Shown: positions 1 to 63,950, numbered from the stretch's first letter. The stretch: DNA of 64,000 nt from Candidatus Latescibacterota bacterium (GCA_965206595.1 OZ242214.1:64001-128000), one strand, 5' to 3'. Program-made: numbers and translations. Notes: generated by a model from the letters alone, not told the origin.

Positions 1-2786
1 TCGTGCAAGGCACCGTAATTCCCCACCCCCAGGTACGGCGTCCCCGTGCCCCGGCCGCCCAACAGCCCCAGCCCCCAGGCCGCCTCCGCCTCGAGACGGC
101 CCGCCGCGTTGGCGGCCAGCCCCGCCAGCGTCTCGCGGTCCATAAGCGCCTCCACGCCGCCAGAAGACGACGTCCCCCACGAGGGCATCAGCGACACCGA
201 CGGGCCCAGCTCCGAGGATGGCCGCGGGTCGAAGCGCAGCGAACCCGACAGCATGCAGTCCCGAAAGTCCGAAGCCTGGTGAGCCACCAGGCCGCGCACC
301 GTCACCTGCGCCGTCAGGCCCCGCGCCGCGTCGGCAAACGCCGAACCGGCCCCGACCTCCACCCCGAAACCCGTCTCCGCGTCGCCGCCGTCGTGGCGCA
401 GGCCCAGCTCCACCGTCGGCGTCAGCCACCCGCCTGCAAGCGCTACATCCAGGGAGCCCTCCAGACCCATACGCAGGCGGCTCACGTCGGCAACCGCCGG
501 CGCAAGCAGGCCCGACGGGCTCGACCCCGCATCGGAGGTCGTGCGCACGAACAGCGCATCCGACTCGATTGCCAGCGACGGACCGCCCGCGGGTTCACCG
601 GATACGAGGTCGGCCCTCACACCGGCCGCCGCCATCGCAAGGTCCATGCCGGTGCGGTACGACTCCCCGTCGTTCATCGTCAGCCTCAGGTCCCCCAGAC
701 CGTATCCGGCGGTGCCCCACAGCGACACCTCCTGGGTTGGCTTGTAGCCGACATAGGGATACAGGCCGGTCAGCGAGGAGGCCAGGTTGCCGTCGCCGCG
801 GCCGGGCGAACGCCAGCTGCCGTCCCCGCGGCTGTGCGACAGCGGCAGCCCCACCACCCAGGGCCCGACGGCGTAGTCGGCCCCGAACATCCCCGTCGTC
901 ACCCCGCCGTCGAGGGACAGGGCGTCGGCGCTCCCGCCTATACTGGAATACGCTCCGCGGCCCCAGAGAGTGCCATGGCCGCTACCCGTCTGCCGGCTCA
1001 AGGTGAAGGCGCTTCCCGTCACCAGGTCGCGCAGGGCCGGGGACTGCGGCCGCAACCGGGCTTCGGCCGCCTCGCCGAACCGTTCCGGGGGCGTCGCGAA
1101 ACCGCCCTGCGGGGCGACTTCACTTGCGCCGACGGACGCATACGCCGCTTCCTCCCCTGCTACTCCGAGAGCATTGCCCGCGAATGTCGCCTGCACCCCC
1201 GGCTGGCGCGGCGCCTCCAGGCGCGCCTGTACGCCGTCGAGCACACGCTGGGCGGCAGTGCGGCCGAAGCGCGCCAGCCAGGCTTGCTGCAACGGATCCG
1301 CGTTCTCGATCGTCCCCGTCGCCGTGTCGTCGGCAATACGCGCCCCCGAGGCGTTGCTCAAGGTCAGCGTCAGGGTCTCCTCCCCCTCGTCGTGGGCATC
1401 GTCGAGAACCGCTATTGAAACCGTCTTGCGCGTCTCGCCCGCAGCGAAGGTGAGCGTTCCGTTCGCGGCTGTGTAGTCCTGGCCTGCCTGTGCGGTGCCG
1501 TCCGCGGTCGCGTAATCCACCGTCACCGTCTCCGAGGCCGTCCGGTTCAGCATCACCGTGAATTCGAGCGTTGCGTCCGCCGCCTCCGTCGTCCGCGCGT
1601 CCGCAACCGACAGCGCCGCCGCCCTTCCGGCGACGCAGTGGACCGACCCGTCCTCCAGGACGGTGCAGTTGACCGACCCGTCCACCTTGTGGCCGGGGTC
1701 GTCGGCCACGCCGGGGTAATAGCGATCTGCGGGCAACAAGCCCAAACTGGCGACGAGCGTGGGCACCCACCCGACGAATCCGGTGTCCGGCCCGCCCTCG
1801 TCAACGCTGATGCCGTTTGCGTCGCCATCGTCCAATTGCACCTGATACCGGTAGATCAACTCAGTCGTGAAGGAGCCGGACAGGTAGGCTGCCTGGCCAG
1901 CCACATCGCCGACCTGAATGCCAATGGACGATTCGCCCTGCACGTACACGGGCGTGTTGAACGTCAGGGCGATATCGATGTTTTCACCTACCAGGTAGGT
2001 GTCTCCGCCTGAGGGCGTCGATACGATCTCCGTCCTGTAGGCGCGGTGGTAACTGGGACGCCCCTTGACCTCTATCTTGAGAATCAAGCGAGAGCCCCAT
2101 TTCCAATCGGGATCGCCCGCGGTCCGAAAGCCGCAATGATCGTGGATTTCCCATCCTTCCTCGGCCCCGGGGTCGTCTTCACCGCTGTAGGTCGAGACGA
2201 ACTGGGCCAGGTTGTCATTTGCGCAACCTGCCGTGCAATCAAGCAGGAAGTAGTACTCCGTGTCCGGCTCCAGATAGGTGTTCTCAGGTGCCCACCACTC
2301 ATTGGCCGCATAGTCGTTCAACTGGCCTCTGGTGAGCTTGGCGACGCGGGTGAAGCCGGATTCATCCCAGAGGTAGATGCCTGCGTCCAGCGTCATGTAC
2401 CGGCTCTCATGGGTGTCGTGCACATGCAGCACGATGCTCGTCAATTCATACCCCCCGAGATTGGGGCCGGTTCTGAATGCCTGATTCAGTCCGTCCTGAG
2501 ACGCATTCAGCACTAACGCCCGGTCTGAGGATTGGTCGGTATTCTTCGCCAGCGTTCTGATCGGCGGATCGTACTCTTGAGCCGGGGCAGTCGCCGCGAC
2601 GACAAGGACGGTGGCCGCCCCCAGAAGCACGGTGCCAGCCCGGCTCGAGCGGCCTCGCCGTTGCAATTGCCGAATCCATCGCCTGGTCCTGGGGCCGAAG
2701 CGGCCTGCCTGTCGGGGTTGCGTGGTTCCTCCCCCGGCATCGGTCTCCCCCTGTCTCTGCAGGTCGACACCTGATATCCTGCTCAT
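1..2786 (-). CDS. Large surface protein (Calx-beta domain, autotransporter-like C-terminal beta-barrel); paralog of 3642..8825; runs off the window edge
   Basis: ATG at 2786 in the same context as ATG 8825. The frame at the window edge (GGRGTGTPYLGVG) is the same frame and aligns with the C-terminus of the 1727-aa paralog. It is absent from the ORF track, consistent with no in-window stop. Confidence 0.85.
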   Translation of the reverse strand, partial: MSRISGVDLQRQGETDAGGGTTQPRQAGRFGPRTRRWIRQLQRRGRSSRAGTVLLGAATVLVVAATAPAQEYDPPIRTLAKNTDQSSDRALVLNASQDGLNQAFRTGPNLGGYELTSIVLHVHDTHESRYMTLDAGIYLWDESGFTRVAKLTRGQLNDYAANEWWAPENTYLEPDTEYYFLLDCTAGCANDNLAQFVSTYSGEDDPGAEEGWEIHDHCGFRTAGDPDWKWGSRLILKIEVKGRPSYHRAYRTEIVSTPSGGDTYLVGENIDIALTFNTPVYVQGESSIGIQVGDVAGQAAYLSGSFTTELIYRYQVQLDDGDANGISVDEGGPDTGFVGWVPTLVASLGLLPADRYYPGVADDPGHKVDGSVNCTVLEDGSVHCVAGRAAALSVADARTTEAADATLEFTVMLNRTASETVTVDYATADGTAQAGQDYTAANGTLTFAAGETRKTVSIAVLDDAHDEGEETLTLTLSNASGARIADDTATGTIENADPLQQAWLARFGRTAAQRVLDGVQARLEAPRQPGVQATFAGNALGVAGEEAAYASVGASEVAPQGGFATPPERFGEAAEARLRPQSPALRDLVTGSAFTLSRQTGSGHGTLWGRGAYSSIGGSADALSLDGGVTTGMFGADYAVGPWVVGLPLSHSRGDGSWRSPGRGDGNLASSLTGLYPYVGYKPTQEVSLWGTAGYGLGDLRLTMNDGESYRTGMDLAMAAAGVRADLVSGEPAGGPSLAIESDALFVRTTSDAGSSPSGLLAPAVADVSRLRMGLEGSLDVALAGGWLTPTVELGLRHDGGDAETGFGVEVGAGSAFADAARGLTAQVTVRGLVAHQASDFRDCMLSGSLRFDPRPSSELGPSVSLMPSWGTSSSGGVEALMDRETLAGLAANAAGRLEAEAAWGLGLLGGRGTGTPYLGVGNYGALH

Positions 2787-8901: not shown

Positions 8902-9203
8902 GGCGCAGGAGAAATCGCCTAACCTCCTTATTGCAAAAGAGGTTAGAGGATCAACACGGGAATACGGGAAGAAGCGGAATTGATGCAGAATACCACGGAT
9001 TGAAAGCCGCCCGAAGGCGGCAAGGAGGGGCCTAACCCTCTGAAATCGTGTTACTTATGCGTGGTTTTGGCGGGAATGGCCGATATGCGTGGTGATTTGC
9101 CGCGTTGTGGCATTTTACCACAAACCGCCTGATCGAAACCGGGAGGTTCCGGGCTGGCCTCAGGGCCGTTCTTGTTTGGCCAGGCAGCTGCGCGGCCGGC
9201 GGT

Positions 9204-48701: not shown

Positions 48702-50279
48702 GGGCGTCTTAAGTAATTGTCATAGCGCAATTCAGGTGGCGTATGTGTATATTTTACAGTAAGTTGCTTTCTTTTGCCGCATCCCCTGCGGCGCGCTCCC
48801 CTGATTTCAGAAAGAAGGGGAGCGATGAGTGCGATTCTCTCTCTGGAAGTTTTTCAGGAGCGGCAGAGTCAGGACCGCTTTCGAAGCCGGGCGCATGAAG
48901 CCTTGGACCAATGGCTGGATCGGGTGGAGGCGCAAATGAGCGCGCGCGGATCTTGTGCGCCGACGTTGATGGAGATCACCGCGGCGATGTCTCAAGAGCG
49001 CTCCGGGCTCCCCGCGGCCTTGGTGGAAGCCTTCGTCGAACGCCGCCACGGCCATTTCCTGGCCCAGGAAGAGGCGGCCTGCCCCAAGTGCAAAGGCCTG
49101 CTGCGAGCGCGCCCGTCTCGCTCGCGCACGCAGGAGACGCTGCTCGGGCCGGTGACCTTGGAGCGTCCCTATTTCTACTGCGTTGGCTGTCAGTACGGGT
49201 TCTATCCGCTGGACGAAGCTCTCGGTCTGTCGGCGCAGCGCAAGCAGTGGGACGTGCAGCAGGCCGGGGTCAAGCTGGGGCTGGAGATGCCCCACCGGCG
49301 CGCCGCCGAACTGTTGGACGAGCTCACCGACGCGTCGATGAGCGATTGTGTGATTCACGAGGTGCTGCAACAGACCGGGTCGTTGGACGTGCTGCAGGTG
49401 TGTCCGGACGCGGCCGACATCCAGGATCGCATTGCGCACGCCGCCGCCGGTCGCAAGTGGCGGCCCATCGTGGTGTTGGCCATCGACTAAGGCCGACGTG
49501 CCCCGTCGTCCCCAGACCGCCAAAGGCACCCGTCCCGGACGCAAGAAGAGCCGGTCTCGGCGAAGGCGTTGGCAGGGGGAATACCACGAAGCCAAGGGCT
49601 TTCGCTTCTACCTGATAGACGATGAGCGCATCGAGCAGCTGATCTCCTGGCACCAGATGGGCAACGAACAGGCCTTCGGCGCGGCCTTGCGCCAGGTCAA
49701 GGAGGCGGGGCTGATCCCGGAGGATCAGGTGCGCTTGTGTGCCATCGGAGATGGCGCTCCGTGGATCTGGAAGGGGGTGGAAGAGCTGTTCCCCGGCGCC
49801 CGTCAGATCCTCGACTACTCCCATTGCAGCCGCTACCTGCACGCGGTGGCCGAGGCCCAATACGGCGCCGATGCGGCGCGTGCTGCCCATTGGCTGGAAG
49901 CGACCTTGGCTTTGCCTGTTCTGCGGCGAGGGCACCGGCGTGGTCTGGGGGCTGCAGCGCATGCAGCCGCTCTCGGAAGAGGCCGGAGAGGCCATCGGCA
50001 CGGCCTTGACCTACCTGCAAAAGCGACTGCACCAAGTCGATTTCGGCAGCCATCGCAAGGGGGGATACCCGATCGGGTCGGGGGCGATCGAATCGGCGCA
50101 TCGCTTCATCGGCCATGTTCGTCTGAAACGGTCGGGCGCTTGGTGGTATAAGGAAAACAGCAACGCCATTCTGGCCCTGCGCTGCGCCTTGTACAATGGA
50201 ACGCTTGACCGGGTCTTTCAGCAGTACCGAGAAAACCTGAAAACAACCACCGAAACCGTAACAATCAGCTAAGACACCC
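48702..50279 (+). mobile_element. ISKra4/UPF0236-like element, transposase (48825-50272) disrupted
   Basis: IRs GGGCGTCTTA / GGGTGTCTTA; CPKC..RPYFYC, IGDGAPWIW, LDYSH, IGSGAIES, RLKRSGAWW; stop/frameshift at ~49490 and frameshift at ~49912. Confidence 0.85.
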
Positions 50280-50765
50280 GTCGAGGATTTCAACGATGCG
50301 CCGTTGTTCGGAAAGCGGTGGAAGAGGGATTTCTATTTCCTTGATGTCGTTGTCGGAAACGGCCGGGTAATTCGCGCCTCTGACGCGTTCTGACAACACA
50401 GCGACAAAATCACGTGTGATCGTGAGATAAAACAAGAAGCGAGGTTCTACAACGGCATTATTTGATCGCAGAACACAAAAGCCGGTTGAAGCGATATGGC
50501 CATTGAGGTGGGCCGGAACCATGGCGACGGCGTTGAGGTTCGGACGTACTGTCGACACCAGTATGTCGTCTTTCCGAATGACTTTCCGTGCACGGCTCGG
50601 AGCCTGGGCACCTGGCATGGTTTGGTGTTCGACGATTACCTTGTGAGTGCGGTCAATTCCGGAGATGTCGACGTACTGGAACTCGCCAGGAATTTCTCGG
50701 CGCGGATCGATTTGCTCGGTGGGTTCACACACATCAGCGATGGTTGCGGTGTTCCACCCCATCAT
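50280..50765 (-). pseudogene. hsdS: Type I RM specificity subunit, truncated after the first TRD by IS
   Basis: APSRARK...DILVSTVRPNL...STGF...GANYPAV...IPLPPLSEQRRIVEILD, then IS end. Confidence 0.9.
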
Positions 50766-51154
50766 TCGCCCTCCATCTCTTCCAACTTTCCCCGAACCTG
50801 TTCAAGCAAAGCCTCGACGAGCCCGAGCGCCGCTTTGCGATCGATCGGATCGGTACTCGAATCGACACCACCATACCGGAACTCGACGGCATACGGAGTG
50901 TACATGGCCAGCTTTCGGAAAGCCTTCATGTCGACAGCCCGCGCGGCGAGCTGATTCACCAACGCCTCGAGATTGTGGGTAAGCGGGTAGGTCTCGCCGA
51001 GCAATGCGAGCCAGGCCTTGAAGGATTTCTCCGCGGCCTGCTGCACGTGAAACCCATACGATTCATCCGGCACCCCGGCAGTCATGTTCCGGAGCGTGAG
51101 GACATCGCGTTCGGCCGCATCGAGCAGCATCCGGGCGCACTTAGGGTCGCTCAT
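50762..51154 (-). CDS. HEPN domain protein
   Basis: FHVQQAAEKSFKAWL, THNL, YAVEFRY. Confidence 0.88.
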   Translation of the reverse strand: MSDPKCARMLLDAAERDVLTLRNMTAGVPDESYGFHVQQAAEKSFKAWLALLGETYPLTHNLEALVNQLAARAVDMKAFRKLAMYTPYAVEFRYGGVDSSTDPIDRKAALGLVEALLEQVRGKLEEMEGE

Positions 51155-51476
51155 AGAGCACCTTGCCTTCCCGTAGCGCCCGGGCCAGAACGTGGTTGAG
51201 AGAGTCGCGCCAGTAATCGACCTCGTCGTGGGTATAGACCAGGACGTCGGCAGAAACCGGAAAGTCCGCCAGGACCTTGTAGAGTCTGACCATCTCTTTG
51301 TGCCGGCTCCGCTCCCGGCCGAACGGCTCGGCTTCCAAGACCACCAGATCGACGTCCGATTCCTCTCGCTCGTCGCCGCGGGCGCGGGAACCGAAGAGGA
51401 TCACCTGCTCGGGATCGACCTCGCCGACGATGGCCTGGACCATCTGGTCGATGAGGGTGTCGGTGATTCCGGTCAC
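51141..51476 (-). CDS. Minimal nucleotidyltransferase (MNT)
   Basis: ILFGSRARG...SDVDLVV, DVLV, REGKVLY. Confidence 0.9.
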   Translation of the reverse strand: MTGITDTLIDQMVQAIVGEVDPEQVILFGSRARGDEREESDVDLVVLEAEPFGRERSRHKEMVRLYKVLADFPVSADVLVYTHDEVDYWRDSLNHVLARALREGKVLYERP

Positions 51477-53119
51477 TGCTCCACCTCTTCGAGCAGTTTC
51501 TCCAGCCCCGCAGTTATTTCACGCTCGATCGCCAGCACCTCGCGGATCAGCTCCGCGGGATCCTCGTCCGGAACCGGCTCGGCAACCCGTGGCTTGTAGC
51601 GCGAGGCGGTGAGGTTGTAGTCGTTCTCCGCAATGGTTTCGAACGGCGCCCACCAGCAGCGGGGCTCCTCGCTGCCCGGGTCGAGCACGGCGCCGGCTTC
51701 CTCGCCGGGTGGTTTCTCGAAGCGGGATTCCTTGTAATCGTTCCAGGCCGCCAGCAGCCCGGGGATGTCGTTCTCCCCCGGCGTCTCCGGACGGCCGCCT
51801 CCCTGGATCTTGTCGGGGTCGTAGCCGTCGTTGCGGATCTCGTAGAACCACACCTGTCTCGTAGCCGTCCGGCCCTCTTCCGGCTCGGTCGCCGGGCGCC
51901 GGAAGACGAGCACGGAGGTTTTGACGCCGGCGTACGGTTTGAACACGCCGGCCGGCAGCGACACCACCGCTTGCAACTCGTATTCCCGCAGGAGCTTCTC
52001 GCGCAGTTCCTTGTGAGCTCTCGTCGAGCCGAAGAGCGCGCCCTCCGGTACCACCACGGCGCAACGTCCCCCCGGCGCCAGGGAGCGCAGCATCAGGGCA
52101 ATGAACAACAGCTCGCTCTTTCTCGATTTTGTTGGCAGATCCTGGCGAATCGAGTCCCTGGGGATCTGGCCGGCAAAAGGCGGGTTCGAGAGGATCACCG
52201 CGTAGCGCCGGTTCAGATCGTCCTCGGTGAGTCCGCTCATCTCGGAGAGGACGTTGGCGCGCTTGAGGCGGGCATGGCGGATCCCGTGGAGCACGAGGTT
52301 CATGACGGAGATCCGCATCATCTGGCGCGATACGTCGGTGCCGTAGATGGATGCCTCGAGCCGGCTCCAGTCGGGTATCCTCTCCCCCGGCCCCTTCCGG
52401 TAGGTCTGGAGATTGGGGATCTCCTCTTTCACCTCTTCGAGAGTTTGCCCCCGTTTCTCGAGCCAGTCCTCACCGTAGACCGGCACTTCCTGGGGCTCCT
52501 CGCTGTAGCGGGCAAGGATGTGGTCGACGACGTCGATGAGGAAACCGGCGGTGCCGCAGGCCGGGTCGTACATGGTGTCGCCCAAGTCCGGATCGGTCAT
52601 CTCGACCATGAAGGCGCGGATCTGTCGCGGGGTGCGGAACTGGCCGTTGAGCGCCGACTGTCCGAGATGGGTGAGCAGGTATTCGAAGATGTCGCCCTTG
52701 ATGTCGGGCCCGAGCTTGCGAAAGTCGATGGAGTCGAACATGTCGATCACCTGCTTGAGCACGTTCGGATCGACGATCTCGAGCACGGCGTCGCGAAAGT
52801 ACTCGGCCACCTGCGGGTCGTCCTTGACCAGCGACGCCATGTACGGGAAGACCTCGTCGCGCACGAAGTTGCGCAGATCCTCTCCGCTCTTGAAGCGCCA
52901 CTTGGACCAGCGGAAGCGCTCGGCCTGCGCGGGAAAGAGGAGAGCGCCGTTGCCGGCCCCGAGCCGGCCTTGGAGCTCGCGGGTGGTTTCCTCCTCGTCG
53001 AGGAGCTTCAGGTATATGAGGTAGGAGATCTGCTCGATATAGGTGACGGGATTGGTCACGCCACCGGCCCACAGGATGTCGGTGATCTGGTCGAGCTTGC
53101 GCCGCAGTGTCTGGTCCAT
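51473..53119 (-). CDS. hsdM: Type I RM N6-adenine methyltransferase
   Basis: GDIFEYLL, GQFRTPR, DPACGTAGFL (motif I), NPPF (motif IV), VFKPYAGVKT. Confidence 0.93.
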   Translation of the reverse strand: MDQTLRRKLDQITDILWAGGVTNPVTYIEQISYLIYLKLLDEEETTRELQGRLGAGNGALLFPAQAERFRWSKWRFKSGEDLRNFVRDEVFPYMASLVKDDPQVAEYFRDAVLEIVDPNVLKQVIDMFDSIDFRKLGPDIKGDIFEYLLTHLGQSALNGQFRTPRQIRAFMVEMTDPDLGDTMYDPACGTAGFLIDVVDHILARYSEEPQEVPVYGEDWLEKRGQTLEEVKEEIPNLQTYRKGPGERIPDWSRLEASIYGTDVSRQMMRISVMNLVLHGIRHARLKRANVLSEMSGLTEDDLNRRYAVILSNPPFAGQIPRDSIRQDLPTKSRKSELLFIALMLRSLAPGGRCAVVVPEGALFGSTRAHKELREKLLREYELQAVVSLPAGVFKPYAGVKTSVLVFRRPATEPEEGRTATRQVWFYEIRNDGYDPDKIQGGGRPETPGENDIPGLLAAWNDYKESRFEKPPGEEAGAVLDPGSEEPRCWWAPFETIAENDYNLTASRYKPRVAEPVPDEDPAELIREVLAIEREITAGLEKLLEEVEQ

Positions 53120-53129: not shown

Positions 53130-55850
53130 TCAGCTCGCAGTCCTGAAGACGTCTTCGTCCAGCTGCTCCACCACCTGCCTGAGACCATCCTCGCCGAACA
53201 ACTCGACTCCCCTGCCGGCGGCGTCGAGAATCGACAGCGGCGGCTCGAACAGGTCGTTCAGGCTTACTCGGCCCGTGGCGATGCCCCGATTCTTCAGCAG
53301 GCAGAGGTACTCCGCCTGCTGCGGGGTGAGGGCCCGCACTACGAGCCAGGCTCGGAAGGCCTCTTCGAGCTTCTCCTCTCGGCTCTTGATGCGCAGCCGC
53401 CCGAGCGCGGCGCGGATGAAATCGACGAAGTTGCCGCCTGGCTCGCGGTAGGCGCGGCGCAGGTTCTCCTGGTTGAAGTAGTGCTCGGGCTGGTTGAGGC
53501 GGCGGGCAAGCTCCTCCTCTTCGTCCGGCTCGAGATGCTCTTCGTCGCGCACTTTCTGAAGCAGCGGATCGTCGGCCGCCCGGGATCGGATCGTCTCCAT
53601 CCAGCGGGTTAGGTATTCCTCCTTGTCGACTCGTTCTCCCTCGGGGCCGACCTCGACGTAGGTGACTGCTTCCAGCCACTCGTCCTCCAGCCCGAGCTCG
53701 ACGAGATCCCGCGTCTCCGGCCCTGTCCTGGGGCCGCTCGGGGCATGTCCACCCGACGTTCCGGTGAACACGTCGGTATCGCTGTCGTTGAAGTACTGGT
53801 GATTCCTGAAGAAGTCGTAGATGACAAATTTCCGCTTGCGGATATGCGGCGCGGTGCGCGTGCCCCGGCCTCGCATCTGCTGGTAGAGAATGGGGCTTCG
53901 CACCCTCCGGCAGAGCACGAGGTGGAGGATCTCGCGGCAGTCGAAGCCGGTGTCGAGCATGCCGACGCTCACCGCGACCATGGGGAAGGTCTCGGTCTTG
54001 AACCGGCGAATCAGGGTGTCCGGATCGGCCACGTCGGAGGTGATGACCTCGGCATAGCGGCCCTTGTGTTCGGGGTGCAGCTCGTTCAGGTACTGCGCCA
54101 GTCTCGCCGCGTGGTGCTTGGTGATGGCGAAGACGATCCCCTTGCCCGGGCCCGGGTCCTGGCCGGGAGCCAGTTCCGAATAGGTCTCCCAGGCAAGCCG
54201 GTCGAACTCCTCCATCATAAGGCGGTTGGTCTCTTCGTTGGTCCAGGCGCGTTCGAACTCGACTGGGTCATAGTGTTCGTCGTCGAGTTCGGCCCCCTGG
54301 GCCAGGATCTCGGTGATGCCTCTGGCGAAGCGGTAGGGCACGAGGTATTCCTCGTTGAAGGCGTCCTTTATTGAATAGGAGACGTCCGGTTTGCCCGGCT
54401 CGCACTGGTAGAAGTCGTAGGTGTTGCGCTCGATGAAGCTTGCCGGCGTGGCCGTGAGTCCGATATGGAGGGCGTCGAATCGCGTGAGCGCTCCCTGCCA
54501 GGCGCCATAGATGGAGCGGTGGCATTCGTCGGCGATGACGATGTCGAAGTAGCCGGCGGTGTACTCGTCGACGCGGCCAATCATGGTCTGAAGCAGGGTA
54601 ACGGTGATCTGCTGCTCCTGGCGCGCCATGCCGGGCCGCAGCCAGTAGCTCGAATACGCACCCAGAATGTCCTGGATGGCTTCAAGAGCCTGCTTGGCGA
54701 GCTGGTCGCGGTCCGCCAGGAAGAGGATTCGCTCGGCCCAGCCGGCTTGCAGGAGTCGCTTCAGGTAGAGGCAGATGAGGTCGGTCTTGCCGGTACCGGT
54801 CGGCAGCTCGATCAGGAAGCGCCGCCTGCCGAGCTCCAGCGCGTGGTCGAGCGCCTGCATCGCCTCGGCCTGGTAGGGCCGCACCGTGCGCGTTTCCCCC
54901 TGGCGGATGTAGTGCTCCGGGATTTCGACCGTGGCGAGCGGCCTGCGCGTCTCCCGCGTCTCCACCATGCGCTCGAGATCACGCTGAGAGAAGAAGCCGG
55001 CGATGGGGCGGGCGTCGTCGTTCTGGTAGTCCCAGAAGTAGGTCAGCTCCCCGTTGGTGAGGAAGATGAAGGGTGCTTCGAGCGCCTTGGCGTAGGGCAG
55101 GGCCTGTTGCTTGGCGACATAGGGATTGATGGCGTTCCTCTTTGCCTCGATGACGGCCAGCGGGCGGCCGCGCTGGTCGTAGAGGACGTAGTCGGCGCGG
55201 CCGGTTGAAGCGTCATCCGCGGCTTCGAGCAGGCAGACGAACTCGCCGACGACGCGGAGGTCCCCTTCTGCGCCTGGGTCGAAGACGAGGTCCTCGTAAG
55301 CCGGATCCGGATTGAGCGGCTGCAGCCGGATTTCGCGATGGCTCCAGCTGTCCCCATCCGGTTCGGCTGCTTTCGTGCTGCTGTATTTCTTGACGGAGAA
55401 CTCGCCTCCGAGCGCCGGATCGGTGCAGCCGCGGTGCCAGACGAGGACGAGCTTTCCCTCCCTGGTCCCGCCGCGGTCCGTCCGAAACAGGCAGTAGGAA
55501 CCGTCGGGGATGGCCGGCTCCATAGAGTGCCCTTCGATGCGGGCAACGAAGTGGTCGCGGGTGAGCCGGACGCGGCCCGGCACCGCCATCCAGCCGATTT
55601 CGTCATGCTCGGTTCCGACGGTCTGGTCCGGGCTGAATTTTCCTGCCGCGGCAATCAGACCGTAGACCGGCGCGTGCGTTTCGAATGGCCTCGCTCCCAC
55701 GCGGTCGACGATTCGGGCGCGACTGGGGGCGGAAGCCGCCTGGACCTCGGTACCGACCATCGACTGGTCGTCCGCGTCCCAGCCGGACTGCGCCAGCAGT
55801 TCGTCGATAACTATGCGGGCGTCCGCCTCGTTTTCGCGCCGGTTCATCAT
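53130..55850 (-). CDS. hsdR: Type I restriction subunit with an inserted S24 peptidase domain
   Basis: NEADAR..ID..L, ADYVL, IEAK nuclease motifs; PTGTGKT, DECH, GLTATP, QMRGRGTR helicase motifs; GAGG RBS before ATG 55850. Confidence 0.9.
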   Translation of the reverse strand: MMNRRENEADARIVIDELLAQSGWDADDQSMVGTEVQAASAPSRARIVDRVGARPFETHAPVYGLIAAAGKFSPDQTVGTEHDEIGWMAVPGRVRLTRDHFVARIEGHSMEPAIPDGSYCLFRTDRGGTREGKLVLVWHRGCTDPALGGEFSVKKYSSTKAAEPDGDSWSHREIRLQPLNPDPAYEDLVFDPGAEGDLRVVGEFVCLLEAADDASTGRADYVLYDQRGRPLAVIEAKRNAINPYVAKQQALPYAKALEAPFIFLTNGELTYFWDYQNDDARPIAGFFSQRDLERMVETRETRRPLATVEIPEHYIRQGETRTVRPYQAEAMQALDHALELGRRRFLIELPTGTGKTDLICLYLKRLLQAGWAERILFLADRDQLAKQALEAIQDILGAYSSYWLRPGMARQEQQITVTLLQTMIGRVDEYTAGYFDIVIADECHRSIYGAWQGALTRFDALHIGLTATPASFIERNTYDFYQCEPGKPDVSYSIKDAFNEEYLVPYRFARGITEILAQGAELDDEHYDPVEFERAWTNEETNRLMMEEFDRLAWETYSELAPGQDPGPGKGIVFAITKHHAARLAQYLNELHPEHKGRYAEVITSDVADPDTLIRRFKTETFPMVAVSVGMLDTGFDCREILHLVLCRRVRSPILYQQMRGRGTRTAPHIRKRKFVIYDFFRNHQYFNDSDTDVFTGTSGGHAPSGPRTGPETRDLVELGLEDEWLEAVTYVEVGPEGERVDKEEYLTRWMETIRSRAADDPLLQKVRDEEHLEPDEEEELARRLNQPEHYFNQENLRRAYREPGGNFVDFIRAALGRLRIKSREEKLEEAFRAWLVVRALTPQQAEYLCLLKNRGIATGRVSLNDLFEPPLSILDAAGRGVELFGEDGLRQVVEQLDEDVFRTAS

Positions 55851-55878
55851 TTCCTCGTCCATGGAAAATTAGATGAAC

Positions 55879-55893
55879 GCAAAGCGCGTGCCA
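55879..55893 (-). promoter_or_regulatory. sigma54 promoter of the hsdR-hsdM-MNT-HEPN-hsdS operon
   Basis: Minus strand TGGCACGCGCTTTGC, full match to TGGCAC-N5-TTGC, immediately after the regulator stop and ~30 nt before hsdR. Confidence 0.88.
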
Positions 55894-57402
55894 TCATTCG
55901 CCCACCCCGTAGCGTTTCATCCAGTTGGTGAGGGTCTGGTAGCTGGGCAGGCCGACGAGGTCGGCCGCCCTGGTCTTGTTGCCCTGCCCCTCGTCCAGGG
56001 CCCTCTCCAGGTAGTGGCGGGCCACGGATGCCAGAATCCCGGGCAGGTCGAGACCGTCGCCGAGGGGCTTGCCAAGCACCGATGCCTTTCCGGTTTCGCC
56101 CGCGGGCAGGAGGGAGTCGCGAATGTCCTCCGTCCTCAGCGTGGCTTCCGGGGTCCAGATCGCCGCGCGTCCCAGGGTGTTCTGCAGCTCGCGGACATTC
56201 CCGGGCCACGGGTGCGCGAGAAGGAGGTTTCTCGCTCCGGAAGAAAGTTCCTTCTCCACGAATCCCGGCTGCCCCCGCCCCTCCCGGTTCACGAGGGCGA
56301 GAATGTGATCGATCAGGAGCGGGAGATCGTCGCGCCGGTCCCGTAACGGGGGCAGTGGCAGCACCGCCACCGCCAGGCGATGGAAGAGGTCCTCGCGAAA
56401 GGCGCCGGCCGCCACTTCGGACAGGAGAGAGCGGTTGGTGGCCGCGATCATTCGCACGTCCACCTTGCGGCTACGAGAAGTCCCGACCGGAAGCACCTCC
56501 CCCTCCTGGAGCGCGCGCAGCAGCTTCACCTGCGCGGGCTTGGGAAGCTCTCCCACCTCGTCGAGGAACAGGGAGCCCCCGGATGCCTCCACGAAATGGC
56601 CTTTGCGGTCCTTTGTAGCCCCCGTAAATGCTCCCTTTACGTGACCGAAGAGCTCGGATTCGACGATCTCCGGAGGAATGGCGCCGCAGTTGACGGCCAC
56701 GAAAGGCTTGTCGCGCCGCGGACTGGTGCGATGGATGGCGCGGGCGAGAAGCTCCTTGCCGGTACCTGTCTCCCCTTCGATCAGCACCGGGACGGAGCGC
56801 GGGGCGACGCGGCGCGCCCGCAGGATCACGCGCTGCATGGCCTGGCTCCGGTGCAGGATCTCCTCGAATTCCGGCGCCTCCGGGGAGAGACCGGCGCTGA
56901 GGCGCTCGAGCTCCTCGTCCGGGCGGCGCAGCAGATCCGGAAGGAAGTCTGCTGAAATATCGAAGGGGACGGACACCGTGCTGACGCCGTGCTGCTTCGA
57001 GGACTCGATCAGCTCCGCGGGAAAGCGCGTCTTCGCGAGGATGATCCATACCGCGGCCATGGCCGGCGTGCCCGGGCTCAGGTGAAAGGTGAGGGCCGTG
57101 TCCCTGGGGCCGCCGGCCAAGGCCGTCTCGCAGGCGCGGACCGCGGCGACGTAGATCTCGCCGAATTGGGTGGGACCGGTGAGCTCCTCGTGGAGCAGGT
57201 GAAGGGTGGTGCCTTCGCAGCGCTGCTCGAGCCACTGCCGGTAGGGGCGAACGGCGCCGGCCTCGTGGTCGAAGAGCAGGTAGGCGTCATCGAACTCGCG
57301 GGCCATCAGCGCCTGGGCAACCGGCCCGGTTCCGACTGTCGGCTCCTCTTCGGGAGCGTCCAGGTCCGTGTTGCCTATCCAGGTGATGAGAGTCTTTAAC
57401 AC
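55894..57402 (-). CDS. sigma54 enhancer-binding protein with an RtcR/CARF-like N-terminal domain
   Basis: N-terminal TWIGNTD ... [10 protein letters not shown]; [36 protein letters not shown]; C-terminal HTH; no receiver domain. Confidence 0.88.
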
Positions 57403-57994: not shown

Positions 57995-59854
57995 CCCTTG
58001 TTATTCATGGAATTTTAGTGGAGAGGGCTGTACTGGGTGCCTCCCATGCTTAGATTTCAGAGGGAAACACAAGGCAGTATCGCCCTTTGAACCCATCACA
58101 CAGTAGGACACCCAATGGGTGAATTACCGTCACACACCGAGTCCGAGCAAGCCGGGCCGATTCAGCCGTCTTTCAACCGCTCCATCCACATCGAAGCCCG
58201 CCCCACCCACCTTGGCAGCGACACCGGTGCGCTGATGTTGCGTCAACTGCTCGAACACAGCCGGGTTCTGGATTGGGTCGACGCCCACTTCGAGGATCTC
58301 CGTACCCAAGACCAGATCACGCACCCGCTGCCGGAGCTGCTGCGCACACAGATCGTGCTGCTGGCACAGGGCTGGACCCACGCCGCCGACGCCGACGCGT
58401 TGCGCCAAGATCCGATCCTGCGTCTGGCGGTCAGCGATCGCAAAGGGCAGGCGCCGTTGCGCAGCGGCGACGAAGACCGGCCGCAGGGACTGGCCAGTCA
58501 GCCGACGCTGTCGCGCCTGCTCGAGCAAGCCTCGACTGCCTATAACCGCGAGGTGTTGGAGGAAGCCGTCCTGCGCAGCGCCCGGTCTCGTTGCCGGCTG
58601 CTGGAAGGACGGATGAAATACGAGGAGTTGGCCGTCGACATGGATGCCCTGCCGATGCCGGCGCACGGGCACCAGGCGGGGGTCGAATACAACGGCTACT
58701 TCCACGCCTCGGGGTACCATCCCCTGCTCCTCGGCTCGGCGCAGACGGGCGATTTCTTCGGTGCCGTGCTGCGGCCGGGCAACGTGCACGCCCATGAGGG
58801 CGCCTCAGAGGCTCTCGGCAAGCGCTTGGACTGGATTCAGTCGCATCTGGCCCGGCGCCTCATCCTGCGCTTCGACGCGGCCTCGGTGAGCGGGTCTTTC
58901 CTGAGTGAGCTGGAAGCGCGGGCCGACACCTCGTACGTGGCGCGCATCAAGAAGAATGCGCGCCTGGAGGAGCTGGCTCGTGCCTGGGTGGAAGGCTATC
59001 AGCAGGAGCTGGCGCAGCACCCGGAAGAGCTGCGGGAAGAGGGTTTTCGCTGTCGCGAGCTGCGCTATCAAGCCAGGTCCTGGGCGCAGCCCCGGCGGGT
59101 GGTGTTGGTCCTGGTCCCTTCCGAGACGGAAGAGCTGCCCATCGCCCGCCACTTCTTCCTGATCACCGACCAGAGTCCCCAGACGATGAGCGGCCGCGAC
59201 CTGGTCGCCTTTTATCGTCAGCGCGGCCTTTTCGAGCGCATGCTCGGCGAGTTGAGCTCCACCCTCCAGCCTCAGCTCTCCTCTACCACCCGTCGCAAGC
59301 AACACTACCGGGGTCGAGAGCCGCGTCAGCGCACCCCGTCCCGGGATGCCTTCGCTGCCAACCAGGCGCTTCTGACCTTGAACCTGCTGGCCTACAACCT
59401 GCTTCACCTGGGCCGCCAGGCCGCCGAACGCGCCGAGGCCCGACGCGGGCGGCCCCGCACATACGGACGCTCGACGACGGCCCTGAGCCTGGACAGTTTT
59501 CGACGGCGCTACCTGCGCCTGCCGTCCCGCGTCACCTTGCATGGGCGCAGGGTGGGCGTCATCCTGACCCAAGGGACGGCGGCTGCCTGGGATCGTCTGT
59601 GGAGATTTCTGGCCACGCTCAAACCGGTGGACGCGGCGATGGCGTAAGCGCAGGCCGGGTCGGTCGGGATGATGGGCTCGCAAAGGCAAGCGTCTTCGAG
59701 AAGGCGCGTACAATTTCAACAAGGTCGGTAGAGATAAGGAGACGGCTCTACCCAAAAAGCCGACTATAGAAGGGACGCAAGCCTCTGAGGCTAAGCAAAG
59801 GGGTCTCGGAAGCGCCTATGTCCGCTTATGCGCGGGTTGAATGAATAACAAAGG
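57995..59854 (+). mobile_element. IS1380-family element, copy 2, with 5-bp target duplication TTTAA
   Basis: TTTAA at 57990-57994 and 59855-59859; same IRs as copy 1. Confidence 0.95.
58115..59647 (+). CDS. IS1380 transposase
   Basis: Translation identical to 31719..33251. Confidence 0.92.
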   Translation: MGELPSHTESEQAGPIQPSFNRSIHIEARPTHLGSDTGALMLRQLLEHSRVLDWVDAHFEDLRTQDQITHPLPELLRTQIVLLAQGWTHAADADALRQDPILRLAVSDRKGQAPLRSGDEDRPQGLASQPTLSRLLEQASTAYNREVLEEAVLRSARSRCRLLEGRMKYEELAVDMDALPMPAHGHQAGVEYNGYFHASGYHPLLLGSAQTGDFFGAVLRPGNVHAHEGASEALGKRLDWIQSHLARRLILRFDAASVSGSFLSELEARADTSYVARIKKNARLEELARAWVEGYQQELAQHPEELREEGFRCRELRYQARSWAQPRRVVLVLVPSETEELPIARHFFLITDQSPQTMSGRDLVAFYRQRGLFERMLGELSSTLQPQLSSTTRRKQHYRGREPRQRTPSRDAFAANQALLTLNLLAYNLLHLGRQAAERAEARRGRPRTYGRSTTALSLDSFRRRYLRLPSRVTLHGRRVGVILTQGTAAAWDRLWRFLATLKPVDAAMA

Positions 59855-60234: not shown

Positions 60235-60780
60235 ATGACCGGAGATCCCCACGGAAAGGACCTGACCAAGATGAACCGAGCACTGCGTGACATCCTCTTG
60301 GAGGCGTCTGAAGACGAACTCCGAGAAGCGTTCGCCGATACAGGCGAGGACCTCGACTCCCTTGCAGCCCGTGGAAAGGAAGCCGCCCAACGCGCCCTCT
60401 CCGAGACACGCGACGGCGCTGGGGTCGAAGACTTGCACCGGGGTCTGAGTGCGCTCCTTCAGATGCTGCGTCGACGTGAACAACTCTCCATTGACGTTCT
60501 CGCACAGAACGCCCACGTGGATGCATCTGAACTGCGCTGCATCGAACACGACCCGGCGTTTGACCCCAACCCCCGCACAATTTTCCAGCTTGAGCAGTAT
60601 TTCAAGCTCCCGGAGAGAAGCCTTGTCGTTCTCACTGGCGCGGTTCAGGTCGACGATGACGTTCGAGAGGAGGCGGTGCGCTTCGCTGCGAGTTCTGAAC
60701 ATATCTCAGATCTCACGAGAGCTCAGCGCAAGCAACTCAACCTATTCGTGAAGTTCCTGAGAAAACACACCGACCGATGA
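60235..60780 (+). CDS. XRE-family HTH protein with an N-terminal helical extension
   Basis: LQMLRRREQLSIDVLAQNAHVDASELRCIE...P.PRTI. Confidence 0.78.
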   Translation: MTGDPHGKDLTKMNRALRDILLEASEDELREAFADTGEDLDSLAARGKEAAQRALSETRDGAGVEDLHRGLSALLQMLRRREQLSIDVLAQNAHVDASELRCIEHDPAFDPNPRTIFQLEQYFKLPERSLVVLTGAVQVDDDVREEAVRFAASSEHISDLTRAQRKQLNLFVKFLRKHTDR

Positions 60781-61754
60781 AAAATCATCCAATAGACCCG
60801 TTCGCGGCGGAAGATATTAAGGATCAGGTGGATAAGGTGCTACGTGGTCTGGATAACCCCGAACCACCGCTAGACCTAGGCGATGTGCGTGAACTTCTCA
60901 AACTTGACCTCCAGTTCTACAGCACTAGGAATACTGGAGCACTCCGCGAGTTCGTGAGCAGGGTTAAGGTAGGGGGAAAGCAGATCGCGATGAGGCCAAC
61001 CCTCATCCTCGACGTGGTCAGCCAAGCAGGTTTGAAGGCCCTTTGGATTCCTGATAGGAGCCGCATCCTTATCAACGAAGAGCTTCATAAACTAAAAAGG
61101 CGGCACGCGGTAGGCCACGAAATTACGCACAGTATCATGCCCCACCATCGTCTGTTCTTGTTTGGCGACGACCGTGAGACGTTGCGTACTTCGTGTCACG
61201 AGAAGCTCGAGTCAGAGGCCAACTTTGGCTCTGGGCAGCTCCTTTTTCTTAGGGAGCGATTTGTTGAAGAAGCGAACGACTTACCGCCAACCCTCAACAC
61301 GGTTCAAAAACTAGCCAAGAGGTTCGGCAACACTATAACCATGACTTTGTGGCGACTCGTTGAGGAAGCTCACGCAGGCAAACCTGTCTTTGGTGTGATC
61401 TCCCCACACCCGAAGCGTCTTTGCGACGACTTCGACCCGACGACGCCATGTCGTTACTTCATCGAGTCTCCGGCATTCCGCGAGCGTTTCGGTATTGTCA
61501 CTGAAGTAGCTGCCTTCGAAGCCATACAGGAGTACGTATCATGGGCGCGCCGAGGCCCGCTGGGGGAGAGCTACGGTGATTTCGTTGGCTGTGATGGAGA
61601 ATCGCATCGTTTCCACATGGAGACGTTTTTCAACGGTTACGAGGCGCTTACGATCGGTACTCACCGTGGTCTCGTGCCCGCGCAGGTGGCTGTTCCGGCA
61701 GACTATCCTCATCCAATGTCCGCGGAGCCATCACACACCGGCATAGGTAAGTAG
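60777..61754 (+). CDS. ImmA/IrrE family zinc metallopeptidase
   Basis: RILIN, RH.VGHEITH (HExxH), ESEANFG; ATGA overlap with the HTH gene. Confidence 0.85.
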   Translation: MKNHPIDPFAAEDIKDQVDKVLRGLDNPEPPLDLGDVRELLKLDLQFYSTRNTGALREFVSRVKVGGKQIAMRPTLILDVVSQAGLKALWIPDRSRILINEELHKLKRRHAVGHEITHSIMPHHRLFLFGDDRETLRTSCHEKLESEANFGSGQLLFLRERFVEEANDLPPTLNTVQKLAKRFGNTITMTLWRLVEEAHAGKPVFGVISPHPKRLCDDFDPTTPCRYFIESPAFRERFGIVTEVAAFEAIQEYVSWARRGPLGESYGDFVGCDGESHRFHMETFFNGYEALTIGTHRGLVPAQVAVPADYPHPMSAEPSHTGIGK

Positions 61755-61829
61755 TAGCACCAGTGGCCCACCTTCTGAACGAGGGGGCCACCTTCACAAT
61801 CCCCGTTAGACCAAAGAGGAGATCAATCG

Positions 61830-62162
61830 ATGGGAACCAATGTTTCCGGAACTACCGAGCGCGAAGAACTCGACATCGAGGCTTTCGCCAAAGAACAACC
61901 CGATCTCGAGAAACCACCCGCTGGCGTCTACATCATCCGCATCGACCGAGAGCGGAAGCGTGTGCATGAGCCGGAGCTTCCCGGGATCAAGATTCTTGCG
62001 CTGGTGGGCAAGACGCCAGACACCCACAAGCTCTTCCAGAAGTTCCATGGCGGCGAAACCAAGGAAGTCAAGGAGGAAGAGGTTGTGAGCTTCCTCAAGG
62101 AGGGCATCGAACGATTTCAGACCATCCCGAAGGACACCACTGAAGGGATTTTTGGTGGTTGA
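61830..62162 (+). CDS. Bacterial ubiquitin-like (multi-ubiquitin domain) protein
   Basis: YIIRID...ILALVGK...VSF...GIERFQTIPKDTTEG plus IFGG tail; GAGGAG RBS. Confidence 0.82.
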   Translation: MGTNVSGTTEREELDIEAFAKEQPDLEKPPAGVYIIRIDRERKRVHEPELPGIKILALVGKTPDTHKLFQKFHGGETKEVKEEEVVSFLKEGIERFQTIPKDTTEGIFGG

Positions 62163-62565
62163 CGACCGGCGTCAGTTCCAGTTACCCGATTTCGATCTTG
62201 AGTTTCTCGACCGCCGCGGCCGGCCGTGGGAGGCGGTGGTCGAGAACGGCATGCATTGGGTAGTTCTCCACGACCATCCGGTTTCCAAGGGCTACAACCA
62301 CACGAGCGTGAGCGCCGCACTTCAGTTGCCGCAGAGTTATCCTGACACTCAAATCGACATGGTGTACTTCTACCCGCATCTGGCACCGACCAACGGAAAG
62401 CTCCCCCGCCGACTTTCGTCCCATAAATTCGACGGAAAGATCTGGCAACGGTGGTCACGGCACCGCACAAATGCCAACGTGTGGCGCCGCGGTTACGACT
62501 GTATCGAGACACACCTCTTGCTTGTCAACGAGTGGCTTGAACGCGAACTCAGATGTGCCGCTTGA
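62152..62565 (+). CDS. Prokaryotic E2/UBC-like protein
   Basis: LP..D.EFL, WE.V, GYN, YPDTQIDMVYFYP.L, WQRWSRH, THL. Confidence 0.85.
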   Translation: MVVDDRRQFQLPDFDLEFLDRRGRPWEAVVENGMHWVVLHDHPVSKGYNHTSVSAALQLPQSYPDTQIDMVYFYPHLAPTNGKLPRRLSSHKFDGKIWQRWSRHRTNANVWRRGYDCIETHLLLVNEWLERELRCAA

Positions 62566-63950
62566 GTGATATCCGACTCCGTCTGACGGGTCAGCAACAC
62601 GCCGATTTGCGCCAACATCTGTTTCCAGGTGACGGGAAAGAGGCGGTGGCGGTTGCTCTTTGTGGCCGAACGGCATCACTTGGGTCGGAAATCCTGCTCG
62701 TTCACAAGCTAGACCTCGTGCCCCACGAGGCGTGTAAGCGCCGCCGAGACCGAATCAACTGGCCCCCGACGCACGTTGAACGGTTTTTCCGCGAGGCTTC
62801 CGCTAACGACTTGGCCATCGTAAAGGTACACAGCCACCCCGACGGCTTCGGTGGTTTCTCGAGTACCGACGATGATTCAGACAGAAAGCTATTCGAGTCG
62901 GTCTATGGTTGGGTCGATGGGGACCGCCCGCATGCAAGCGCCATTATGCTGCCGGATGGTCAGATACGAGCTCGCGCAGTGTCAGCCGGAGGAGCGTTCG
63001 CAACGGTGCGCCACGTTCAAGTTGTAGGTAACGATGTTCTCTTCTGGCCCGACCAACCGGAGTTGGCAGTCCCTGCGTTCGCCGAACGCCACGCCCAGTT
63101 ATTCGGACTTGGCACAACTGCGTTACTTGGCAGCCTCCGGATCGCTGTGGTGGGATGCTCTGGAACGGGCAGCCCGGTCATCGAGCAGCTCGTTCGCCTT
63201 GGGGTGGGGGAACTCGTGCTCGTGGATCCCGACCACGTTGAAGAACGGAATCTCAACCGAATCCTGGGGGCTACAGTAGAGGACGCAAGCCAAGAACGGC
63301 TCAAGGTGGACGTGATAAAGCGCCACATCGACCGGATTGGGCTCGGTACGCAGGTTTATAAGTTCGCTTCCGCTCTGCAGGACCAGGCAGCCATGAGAGC
63401 TGTCGCGGCTTCCGACCTCGTTATTGGGTGCATGGATGGCTTTTCGGGCCGCCACATGCTTGCACGGCTCATTCGCTACTACCTTCTCCCTTACATCGAT
63501 GCCGGCGTGAAGCTCGAAGCCCTTGAAGATGGAACCATCAACCAAGTCGCTGGGAGTGTTCACTACCTCCAACCGACAGGTCTCGACTTTATCGACCGCG
63601 GTGTGTTTACCCTCGAAGACCTCGAGGCTGAGGACCTGTTTCGAACGAATCCCGAAGAATACCGTGAACGACACGCCCGAGGCTATGTTCGTGGGGTTCA
63701 GGTTGACCGCCCTGCAGTCATCAGTGTGAACATGTACTTCGCAAGCCTTGCCGTGAACGAGGTCCTCGCCCGGCTACATCCCTTCCGCATGGACGACAAC
63801 GAGGAATTTGGGACCACCCGCATGAGTCTCAGTCATTTCCAGCTTGAAAACGAAGGTGACGGGCTTGCTCCTCCCCGTATGCTCGCTTCGGTTGGCCGTG
63901 GCGACATCGACCCTCCCCTCGGAATGCCGAGTTTGGGATCACGCCCATGA
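62553..63950 (+). CDS. JAB peptidase - ThiF/E1 fusion
   Basis: HLFPGDGKE...KVHSHP...FS.TDD (JAB); VVGCSGTGS, DPDHVEERNLNR, GCMD, PAVISVN (E1). Confidence 0.9.
   Translation: MCRLSDIRLRLTGQQHADLRQHLFPGDGKEAVAVALCGRTASLGSEILLVHKLDLVPHEACKRRRDRINWPPTHVERFFREASANDLAIVKVHSHPDGFGGFSSTDDDSDRKLFESVYGWVDGDRPHASAIMLPDGQIRARAVSAGGAFATVRHVQVVGNDVLFWPDQPELAVPAFAERHAQLFGLGTTALLGSLRIAVVGCSGTGSPVIEQLVRLGVGELVLVDPDHVEERNLNRILGATVEDASQERLKVDVIKRHIDRIGLGTQVYKFASALQDQAAMRAVAASDLVIGCMDGFSGRHMLARLIRYYLLPYIDAGVKLEALEDGTINQVAGSVHYLQPTGLDFIDRGVFTLEDLEAEDLFRTNPEEYRERHARGYVRGVQVDRPAVISVNMYFASLAVNEVLARLHPFRMDDNEEFGTTRMSLSHFQLENEGDGLAPPRMLASVGRGDIDPPLGMPSLGSRP

Follow-up and report, generated by a model that had tools for sequence, protein, structure and literature searches.

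The 64,000-nucleotide stretch of DNA analysed here (the window) comes from a Candidatus Latescibacterota bacterium (GCA_965206595.1, OZ242214.1:64001-128000) and encodes, at 53130..55862 on the minus strand, a 910-residue type I restriction subunit (HsdR) that carries an S24 peptidase domain nested within its nuclease domain. The gene was delimited from the open reading frame (ORF) and its translation and assigned with Pfam, NCBIfam and PADLOC; its candidate true start is Met5 or Met6, with GAGGA in front. The PD-(D/E)xK nuclease motifs (D224 and E239-x-K241), the superfamily 2 (SF2) translocase and the EcoEI_R_C tail of type I R subunits are all present. Pfam places HSDR_N/HSDR_N_2 at residues 204/219-283, ResIII, SWI2_SNF2 and DEAD at 326-531, Helicase_C at 572-669 and EcoEI_R_C at 748-903, and the protein matches PADLOC REase_I with an E-value of 8.5e-89. 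The best NCBIfam model, the EcoAI/FtnUII equivalog NF046051, scored 255.5 bits, over residues 218-697 only, which is below its cut-off of 550, so that the protein is regarded as a relative of the EcoAI-type (type IB) HsdR and not as an equivalog.

The nuclease domain begins with a helix at residues ~10-30 (NEADARIVIDELLAQSGW, containing Glu12; 55773..55835, minus strand, as are all features of this gene), which the AlphaFold model places at residues 12-25 and follows with a short strand at 36-38. The S24 insert, of the LexA/lambda-CI type, comes next and spans residues ~46-216, with the cleavage-site strand and loop included (55215..55727); it is defined by Pfam PF00717, by its absence in insert-less relatives and by the model. 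The Peptidase_S24 match covers residues 66-208 and profile positions 2-115 of 116, with 29.8 bits against a cut-off of 23.3 (E 5.4e-7). The predicted scissile bond lies between Ala73 and Gly74 (LIAAA-GKF; 55641..55646, with the Ala73 codon at 55644-55646 and that of Gly74 at 55641-55643), and the predicted catalytic residues, located by codon and conservation, are Ser113 (GHSMEP, residues 111-116; 55524..55526) and Lys158 (FSVKKY, with SVKKY at 156-160; 55389..55391). They fall in the S24 family motifs G-x-S-M and V-K-R/K-hydrophobic, respectively. The remaining PD-(D/E)xK core occupies residues 217-300 (54963..55214) and was assigned from the HSDR_N/HSDR_N_2 matches and the codons. It contains Asp224 (ADYVL), Glu239-x-Lys241 (IEAK) and Q253-x3-Y257, which we take to be the QxxxY motif, and is modelled as strands at 225-228 and 234-240 and a helix at 247-261.

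The original prediction, made from the sequence alone, had placed a LexA/UmuD-type S24 autoprotease domain at 55225-55680, which corresponds to HsdR residues ~61-213, and had read an Ala-Gly site, a serine (SMEP) and a lysine (VKK) there. Translation and a check of the codons bear this out, and every string that it had quoted occurs in the 910-residue ORF, namely NEADAR (residue 11), IDELL, GW, PVYGLIAAAG (AAAG at 71-74), FVARIEGHSMEP, PDG, FSVKKY, IRLQPLNP, RVVGEF, ADYVL (223) and IEAK (238).

The nested position was examined by comparison with relatives that lack the domain. When one genome per species was scanned, 117 relatives emerged; the 80 retained comprise 36 insert-bearing loci matched by the whole 300-residue query (L001-L036), one remnant (L037) and 43 close relatives without ~150-170 of these residues. 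The HsdR of the insert-less relatives is 742-775 residues long, and in the alignment its first helix, E(A/T)DARI.IDD.L...GW.P.DKS.V.TEV, which is kept in insert-bearing and insert-less proteins alike, leads through a short variable linker directly to GRADYVL; it is from this junction that the insert is taken to span residues ~46-216. The AlphaFold model of HsdR residues 1-320 was built from a 53-row alignment (A2) and has a mean predicted local distance difference test score (pLDDT) of 75.2 and a predicted template modelling score of 0.57; most of the S24 part has a pLDDT of 85-95, and the loop with the scissile bond (residues 72-80) is below 50. Nuclease folds were matched by VIA-align on both sides of the insert, including the Vibrio HsdR fragment 3h1t (Z 7.3, model 28..291), BpuSI (27..289), BsaXI (29..289) and Cas4; Z-scores of ~5-7 are modest on the tool's own scale and agree with the sequence evidence. 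These matches begin at model residues 27-35. The Pfam HSDR_N models leave helix 1 uncovered, even in insert-less relatives, and because they do not reach it the nesting rests on the alignment and the model.

The S24 domain is a true insertion: on one side of it lies helix 1/strand 1 of the PD-(D/E)xK nuclease and on the other the D224...E239-x-K241 strands. Its presence there is confirmed, well outside chance. An N-terminal fusion of S24 to HsdR is ruled out by helix 1 and strand 1, which form part of the nuclease fold and lie ahead of the insert. The nested architecture of the original prediction, for which alignment with insert-lacking homologues and structure prediction had been proposed as checks, is upheld: the Pfam match is above cut-off, exactly this piece is missing from the 43 relatives, the insert has a LexA/lambda-CI fold with the cleavage-site region included, and nuclease matches flank it. 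Apparent partial S24 remnants in three insert-less loci (L040, L042 and L051) were rejected as spurious tblastn alignments of helix 1. The remnant locus L037 (2793-3251) is a broken gene, truncated at its 5' end, in which only the last ~45 S24 residues are left.

The modelled insert resembles LexA in fold. VIA-align superposed LexA on it with Z-scores of 11-12.8 and a root-mean-square deviation (rmsd) of 2.4-3.3 Å over 110-130 residues (model 55/63..214 against LexA 72/75..198), the best match (Z 12.8, 2.4 Å over 120 residues) covering the cleavage-site strand (model 63-70); the UmuD match had a Z of 9.5-9.6. The top Foldseek matches were a hyper-cleavable lambda repressor fragment with its cleavage-site region (2hnf, 2ho0), LexA, and RecA-bound LexA, CI and UmuD, with a probability of 1.00 to lambda CI and LexA. 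Sequence searches of the PDB chains were null or weak: single-sequence phmmer with the insert found no S24 protein, only chance matches with E-values of 0.1 or worse, and a profile of the wider clade (alignment A1, described below) reached LexA chains at E 0.005-0.008. It took the fold search to show the kinship with LexA.

Residue conservation was measured by local alignment to residues 56-216 in 300 relatives, in three sets: 120 of the HsdR family, 100 other 50%-cluster representatives and 80 long fusion proteins. Ser113 and Lys158 are kept in 300/300 (120/120, 100/100 and 80/80). The residues before (P1) and after (P1') the predicted scissile bond are Ala (115) or Gly (5) and Gly (120) in the HsdR family, Ala (91) or Cys (9) and Gly (91), Thr (7) or Ser (2) in the cluster representatives, and Ala (61) or Cys (19) and Gly (78) or Asn (2) in the long fusions. 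Ala-Gly is the bond cleaved in LexA and CI, and Cys-Gly the one cleaved in UmuD. Two further residues, Phe76 and Trp91, are invariant and particular to the clade. In the alignment the Ala-Gly pair, the SMEP serine and the SVK lysine are present in the window copy as well as in each of the 36 insert-bearing loci; for the Ser and Lys, such conservation in homologues that carry the insert was a check set by the original prediction. The S24 insert looks catalytically competent.

This conservation bears on the idea that the S24 domain no longer cleaves and serves to position or pair the nuclease domains of HsdR, whether as a structural element, by dimerising or by binding RecA filaments. In LexA and CI the C-terminal domains dimerise, type I enzymes cut on the meeting of two motors, and the cleavage loop is modelled at low confidence, all of which would suit such a scaffold. 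A non-catalytic module would not be expected to keep an invariant Ser/Lys dyad together with an A-G or C-G scissile pair in nearly all members, and we consider a scaffold role very improbable. A two-copy complex prediction of the insert (residues 46-216 of A2) scored 0.00, was run without controls and is silent on dimerisation.

Within HsdR the nested domain is widely distributed. A word-indexed search gave 1792 proteins with E <= 1e-3 among 8000 scored candidates, and in the best 120 of these the first 300 residues show 72-98% identity, with PF00717 listed for 114. The 36 insert-bearing loci carry the labels of at least 12 phyla. A tree was built on the protein minus helix 1 and the insert, with 64 rows from 70 ORFs of at least 700 residues (69 loci and the window copy); six (L005, L007, L030, L046, L069 and L077) were left out as the motif pattern missed them. 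In this tree 28 of the 29 insert-bearing rows fall into one clade (Shimodaira-Hasegawa-like approximate likelihood ratio test support 97) together with a single insert-less row, L038, and the remaining insert-bearing row, L035, is unresolved just outside it. The tree requires at least three state changes, of which well-supported branches make at least two unavoidable; in shuffles the mean was 21. This pattern fits one gain of the insert, a loss in L038 and much horizontal transfer. The L038 HsdR (8001-10283, Acidobacteria) has a proline-rich linker at the S24 site, and this, together with its position inside the insert-bearing clade, points to secondary loss. The insert would appear to be an accessory and not a core part of HsdR.

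The same S24 clade is also found on other enzymes. A full-library search with the first 300 HsdR residues gave 2966 matches with E <= 1e-3, and among the best 150 of these many match the insert alone (query ~45-213), at 40-52% identity, through the C-terminus of different proteins. Alignment A1 comprises 100 of these 150, with fragments, HsdR-family members, nuclease-only rows and P0229 (scanned separately) left out, and its Ser and Lys columns are invariant. The Pfam census of A1 has S24 in 100/100, SLFN-g3/DUF2075 helicase in 9, Type_ISP_C in 9, ResIII in 6, HTH_31 in 6, HTH_3 in 5, Eco57I methylase in 5, HNH_4 in 3, N6_Mtase in 3, T1RH-like_C (HindI-like, another HsdR family) in 2, and RE_AlwI and Methylase_S (HsdS) in 1 each; the remaining proteins are mostly short, possibly partial, and without a second domain. 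Individual scans added McrC, an MmeI-like methyltransferase and a methyltransferase joined to HNH as partners. Proteins with DEAD, MZB and S24 domains, of 1557-1996 residues, are also among the relatives of the insert, and a protein of 1878 residues with DEAD, MZB, a restriction endonuclease (REase) domain and S24 is DruE according to PADLOC.

A second search used a representative S24 domain (P0137) as the query among proteins of 374-2000 residues and gave 80 matches with E <= 1e-10, the partners being counted from the listed Pfam strings. These were DUF2075 (24), ResIII or SF2 helicase only (~20), MZB/YprA-like (7), HSDR_N (7), type III Res with RE_endonuc (7), Zn_ribbon_Top1 (4), S24 only (4), helicases containing HIT (3), Type ISP (2), NotI-like (1) and HaeIII-like (1), with a helix-turn-helix (HTH) in none. 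One partner of the clade is a HIT-PLD-helicase. In nearly all of these fusions S24 is at or near the C-terminus, and cleavage would therefore leave ...AA(A/C)-COOH on the enzyme. The fusion partners of the clade all act on DNA. The clade looks like a portable module, given that the same S24 forms the C-terminal tail of many DNA-targeting restriction and defence enzymes.

In four proteins (P0284, P0285, P0291 and P0298) a topoisomerase-type C4 zinc ribbon follows S24 at the extreme C-terminus, so that cleavage would release S24 and the ribbon together. The A1 query found no match among proteins of 2145-5000 residues, a size range set by the query, and the phage collection contained no relative of the insert. 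The plasmid collection contained one, on the chromid NZ_CP040452.1 of the cultured strain Halomonas sp. PA16-9 (L089 5998-8468), where an ORF for a DUF2075-type helicase of 686 residues is followed by an overlapping 159-residue S24 of the clade in another frame, which reflects either an error of sequencing or a fusion with a frameshift. Automatic JGI names, for example 'DUF2075 family protein/phage repressor protein C with HTH and peptidase S24 domain', indicate that annotation pipelines see the domains, and the S24-bearing HsdR relatives go under no more specific names than 'DEAD/DEAH box helicase' or 'type I restriction enzyme R subunit'. Recognition of the S24 domain would matter for the annotation of proteins with such generic helicase or HsdR names.

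The bacterium's own genome (7.05 Mb, one contig) contains three S24 matches, which are LexA, the window HsdR and a second HsdR. The LexA is canonical, with 209 residues and a VAA-G cleavage site. The second HsdR (L084 5318-8860, minus strand; ~G000:C1:3281317-3284859) lies in an operon of the order hsdM-x-hsdS-x-Abi_C-hsdR, has 1180 residues and belongs to another family (SWI2_SNF2, T1R_D3-like); its last ~170 residues are an S24 domain of the same clade, 43% identical to the insert (71/167, E 1e-40). The genome also has recA and clpX, each in two copies, and sigma-54.

We propose, with about even confidence, that the S24 domain of HsdR is a cis-acting off-switch, probably triggered by RecA-single-stranded DNA filaments (RecA*), whose cleavage would break the nuclease apart and uncover an ...AAA-COOH degron like that of LexA. 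A DNA damage signal, most probably RecA* as for LexA, CI and UmuD, would activate the Ser113/Lys158 dyad, which would cut Ala73-Gly74 and so break the backbone of the nuclease domain. The N-terminal piece would be left with a ...LIAAA-COOH end, similar to the C-terminal degron of LexA-like proteins, and ClpXP or a similar protease could then pull out helix 1 and destroy nuclease activity. In this way restriction would be alleviated for a chromosome that is damaged, that has unmodified sites following repair or that the enzyme itself is attacking, the last being a negative feedback. RecA* is suggested as the trigger by analogy, as all close structural relatives respond to it. In the model helix 1 and strand 1 would be released and the S24 body would stay on the nuclease core, so that a cut would be expected to give a broken nuclease rather than removal of a blocker. 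A function as a DNA-damage switch is consistent with all the findings, and the case for it is strengthened by the many further restriction enzymes to which this S24 clade is fused; the cleavage at Ala73-Gly74, the RecA* trigger, the exposure of a degron and the loss of restriction are all inferred.

Published work gives this scheme its precedents. LexA and LexA-like proteins have ClpXP-dependent C-degrons directly beside the autocleavage site, according to a passage of PMC5742171 that cites Neher 2003 and Niu 2010. The original prediction had taken restriction alleviation in the type IA and IB enzymes to be carried out in trans by ClpXP, which agrees with the relevant part of a 2025 review (PMC12707154), and this section together with excerpts of PMC4231737 describes alleviation after damage as proteolytic and ClpXP-dependent. 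In the excerpts of PMC4231737 the degron by which ClpXP recognises HsdR was still unidentified in 2014, and the question is raised of why other classes of restriction-modification (R-M) systems show no alleviation.

Several observations weigh against a damage-triggered off-switch. UmuD is a case where S24 cleavage activates the protein. The S24 body and the large 74-910 fragment would presumably persist after the cut, and five of the 120 HsdR-family members carry Gly at P1. The insert has no BLAST match to the LexA of its own genome at E <= 10, and with no detectable similarity of this kind a RecA*-binding surface is not arguable from sequence. All 36 insert-bearing loci come from metagenome-assembled genomes, and one (L014) is labelled archaeal, where no RecA/LexA system is expected; it lies on a 5.5-kb contig, and its first ~300 residues are one residue off those of the bacterial locus L013. 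The window copy may not restrict at all, as its hsdS is shortened (see below). An excerpt of PMC4231737 reports that EcoKI with a dead nuclease stays toxic in a clpX- background, so that loss of the nuclease alone may not suffice. LexA-like proteins that cleave without RecA also exist, for example IrvR, as described in part of PMC7101444.

The last of these points and the lack of BLAST similarity to the host LexA would also fit self-cleavage in response to a trigger other than RecA*, such as a translocation state that is stalled or lasts long, a protein of phage origin, pH or some other stress, with switch-off still the outcome. EcoKI alleviation, in the sections of PMC4231737 that deal with it, hits individual translocating complexes and involves no general SOS state, and the clade's own invariant residues Phe76 and Trp91 would fit as well. 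The closest folds, on the other hand, are those of RecA*-responsive proteins, their RecA-bound forms included, and an identity of 40-52% in the module across unrelated enzymes and phyla suggests a highly conserved partner such as RecA. A trigger other than RecA* is, in our judgement, decidedly unlikely.

The outcome of cleavage could also be the reverse, with the nested S24 keeping the nuclease in a zymogen-like state and cleavage, on RecA* or an infection signal, letting helix 1 dock and switching cutting on, in the manner of UmuD to UmuD'. Besides the activation of UmuD itself, the UmuD-type Cys-Gly pair in 9/100 and 19/80 clade members would suit such licensing, as would the C-terminal fusions, in which a cut frees the enzyme from the S24 body and could relieve inhibition; the predicted inducible sigma-54 promoter in front of hsdR (see below) fits a system held off until an alarm. 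In the HsdR model, however, the S24 body would stay covalently on the nuclease core after the cut, with helix 1/strand 1 alone released, and the insert-less relatives and the nested loss in L038 need no such step. A feedback from damage to more cutting is also hard to square with methylation-protected partners such as the HaeIII-like and type III enzymes. Activation by cleavage is unlikely, though worth keeping in view, and we retain the off-switch as the preferred interpretation of the HsdR domain.

The range of fusions allows a broader proposal, to which we give somewhat less than even credence: that one portable LexA-like module serves as a self-contained alleviation switch for DNA-cutting immunity generally. 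RecA filaments that signal damage to host DNA, damage done by the enzyme among it, would make the module sever itself from restriction enzymes (types I, ISP, II, III and IV) and from helicase-nuclease effectors, exposing an ...AA(A/C)-COOH degron for ClpXP, and in HsdR the nuclease itself would be cut in two. Restriction enzymes threaten their own host when sites are left unmodified by repair, by recombination or as the system establishes itself in a new cell, and to our knowledge the only well-studied remedy is the degradation of the EcoKI and EcoAI HsdR by ClpXP in trans. If the proposal is true, the module would tie the SOS signal to innate immunity in a general and genetically simple way, through restriction enzymes of types I, ISP, II, III and IV as well as defence helicases of the DruE/YprA and DUF2075 types. 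It would also give restriction systems outside the E. coli type I kind one shared, cis-encoded means of avoiding autoimmunity after DNA damage. The module could also be of use in engineered damage-responsive protein switches.

The insert is like LexA, lambda CI and the HTH-S24 repressors (MEROPS S24, PF00717) in its fold, its Ser-Lys dyad, an Ala-Gly upstream of the catalytic core and the ...AA-COOH end that a cut there would leave. It differs from them in having no DNA-binding HTH and in being nested in a nuclease or, in its relatives, appended to restriction and defence enzymes; LexA and CI regulate transcription, whereas the S24 clade, which is distinct in sequence, would regulate an enzyme. 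UmuD is similar in being an S24 protein without HTH, in exerting control over a DNA-transaction protein through RecA*-mediated self-cleavage, as proposed for the insert, and in its Cys-Gly site, which part of the clade shares. Unlike the HsdR module, it is small and free-standing and is activated by losing 24 residues; the module resides in a helicase-nuclease of 910 residues, where a cut would split the catalytic domain. The alleviation of EcoKI and EcoAI has in common with the proposed switch that HsdR is silenced after translation, by proteolysis, when there is danger to the host chromosome, as described in parts of PMC12707154 and PMC4231737, and the window HsdR is related to that of EcoAI. 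The E. coli protease, in contrast, acts in trans on translocating HsdR, whereas the window HsdR would encode the first proteolytic step itself, linked to a signal of the S24 type. Published full text was searched for S24 domains in restriction enzymes, HsdR among them, and no account of one was found, with subscription journals and supplements (e.g. Table S2 of PMC12458937 and File 4 of PMC4012209) outside the scope of the search. The main texts of PMC12707154, PMC12458937 and PMC4012209 make no mention of S24 or LexA, and that of PMC12458937 none of peptidase.

The operon contains hsdR, hsdM and hsdS, the last in shortened form. The hsdM gene (51473..53119, minus strand; Pfam HsdM_N and N6_Mtase) has its probable start at an inner Met (MDQTLRRKL), is intact and lies directly downstream of hsdR, an order that is the same in related loci. 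Between hsdM and hsdS is a pair of genes recognised by Pfam as a nucleotidyltransferase (MNT, 51141-51476) and a HEPN protein (50762-51154), together at 50762..51476 on the minus strand; the pair is also found in L001, L002, L009, L010, L011 and L027. The hsdS gene (50265..50765, minus strand; Pfam Methylase_S) encodes 166 residues with one target-recognition domain, compared with 402 residues in its L001 counterpart, and is interrupted by an insertion sequence; the adjacent transposase-like frames at 48774-50272 are those of a frameshifted element with a weak UPF0236 match. The R-M system of the window may be inactive or altered in specificity.

Directly upstream of hsdR is an RtcR-like gene (55894..57402, minus strand) for a CARF-AAA+ (sigma-54 activator)-HTH protein, with Pfam matches to Sigma54_activat and HTH_8 and a full-length match to PADLOC RtcR_PspF2--CARF_AAA_HTH (E 6.2e-195). 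A motif match between the two genes gave a sigma-54 -24/-12 promoter-like site, TGGCACGCGCTTTGCG (55878..55893, minus strand), which begins immediately past the stop codon of the activator gene and whose last base is 15 nucleotides before the hsdR ATG. Of the insert-bearing loci, 31 have an upstream flank of at least 1500 nucleotides; in these the activator gene is adjacent in 19/31 and the motif, sought within 250 nucleotides upstream of hsdR, is present in 18/31; both occur in 18/31, the motif without the gene in 0/31 and the gene without the motif in L011 only. In the insert-less loci (n=39) the activator gene is found in 11 and the motif, by a strict pattern, in 5. A portion of Makarova 2014 (PMC4012209) already links the RtcR-type regulator family to R-M systems. 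We predict that hsdR is under two separate layers of control, the sigma-54 activator and promoter on the one hand and the S24 domain on the other.

Further upstream of the operon is an IS4-type DDE transposase at 58115-59647, followed by a flank resembling a defence island (60235-63950, plus strand). This flank includes an XRE-like gene and an IrrE/M78 peptidase gene (60777-61754), and then genes for Multiubiquitin (61830-62162), a prokaryotic E2 (62152-62565) and a JAB+ThiF/E1 fusion (62553-63950).

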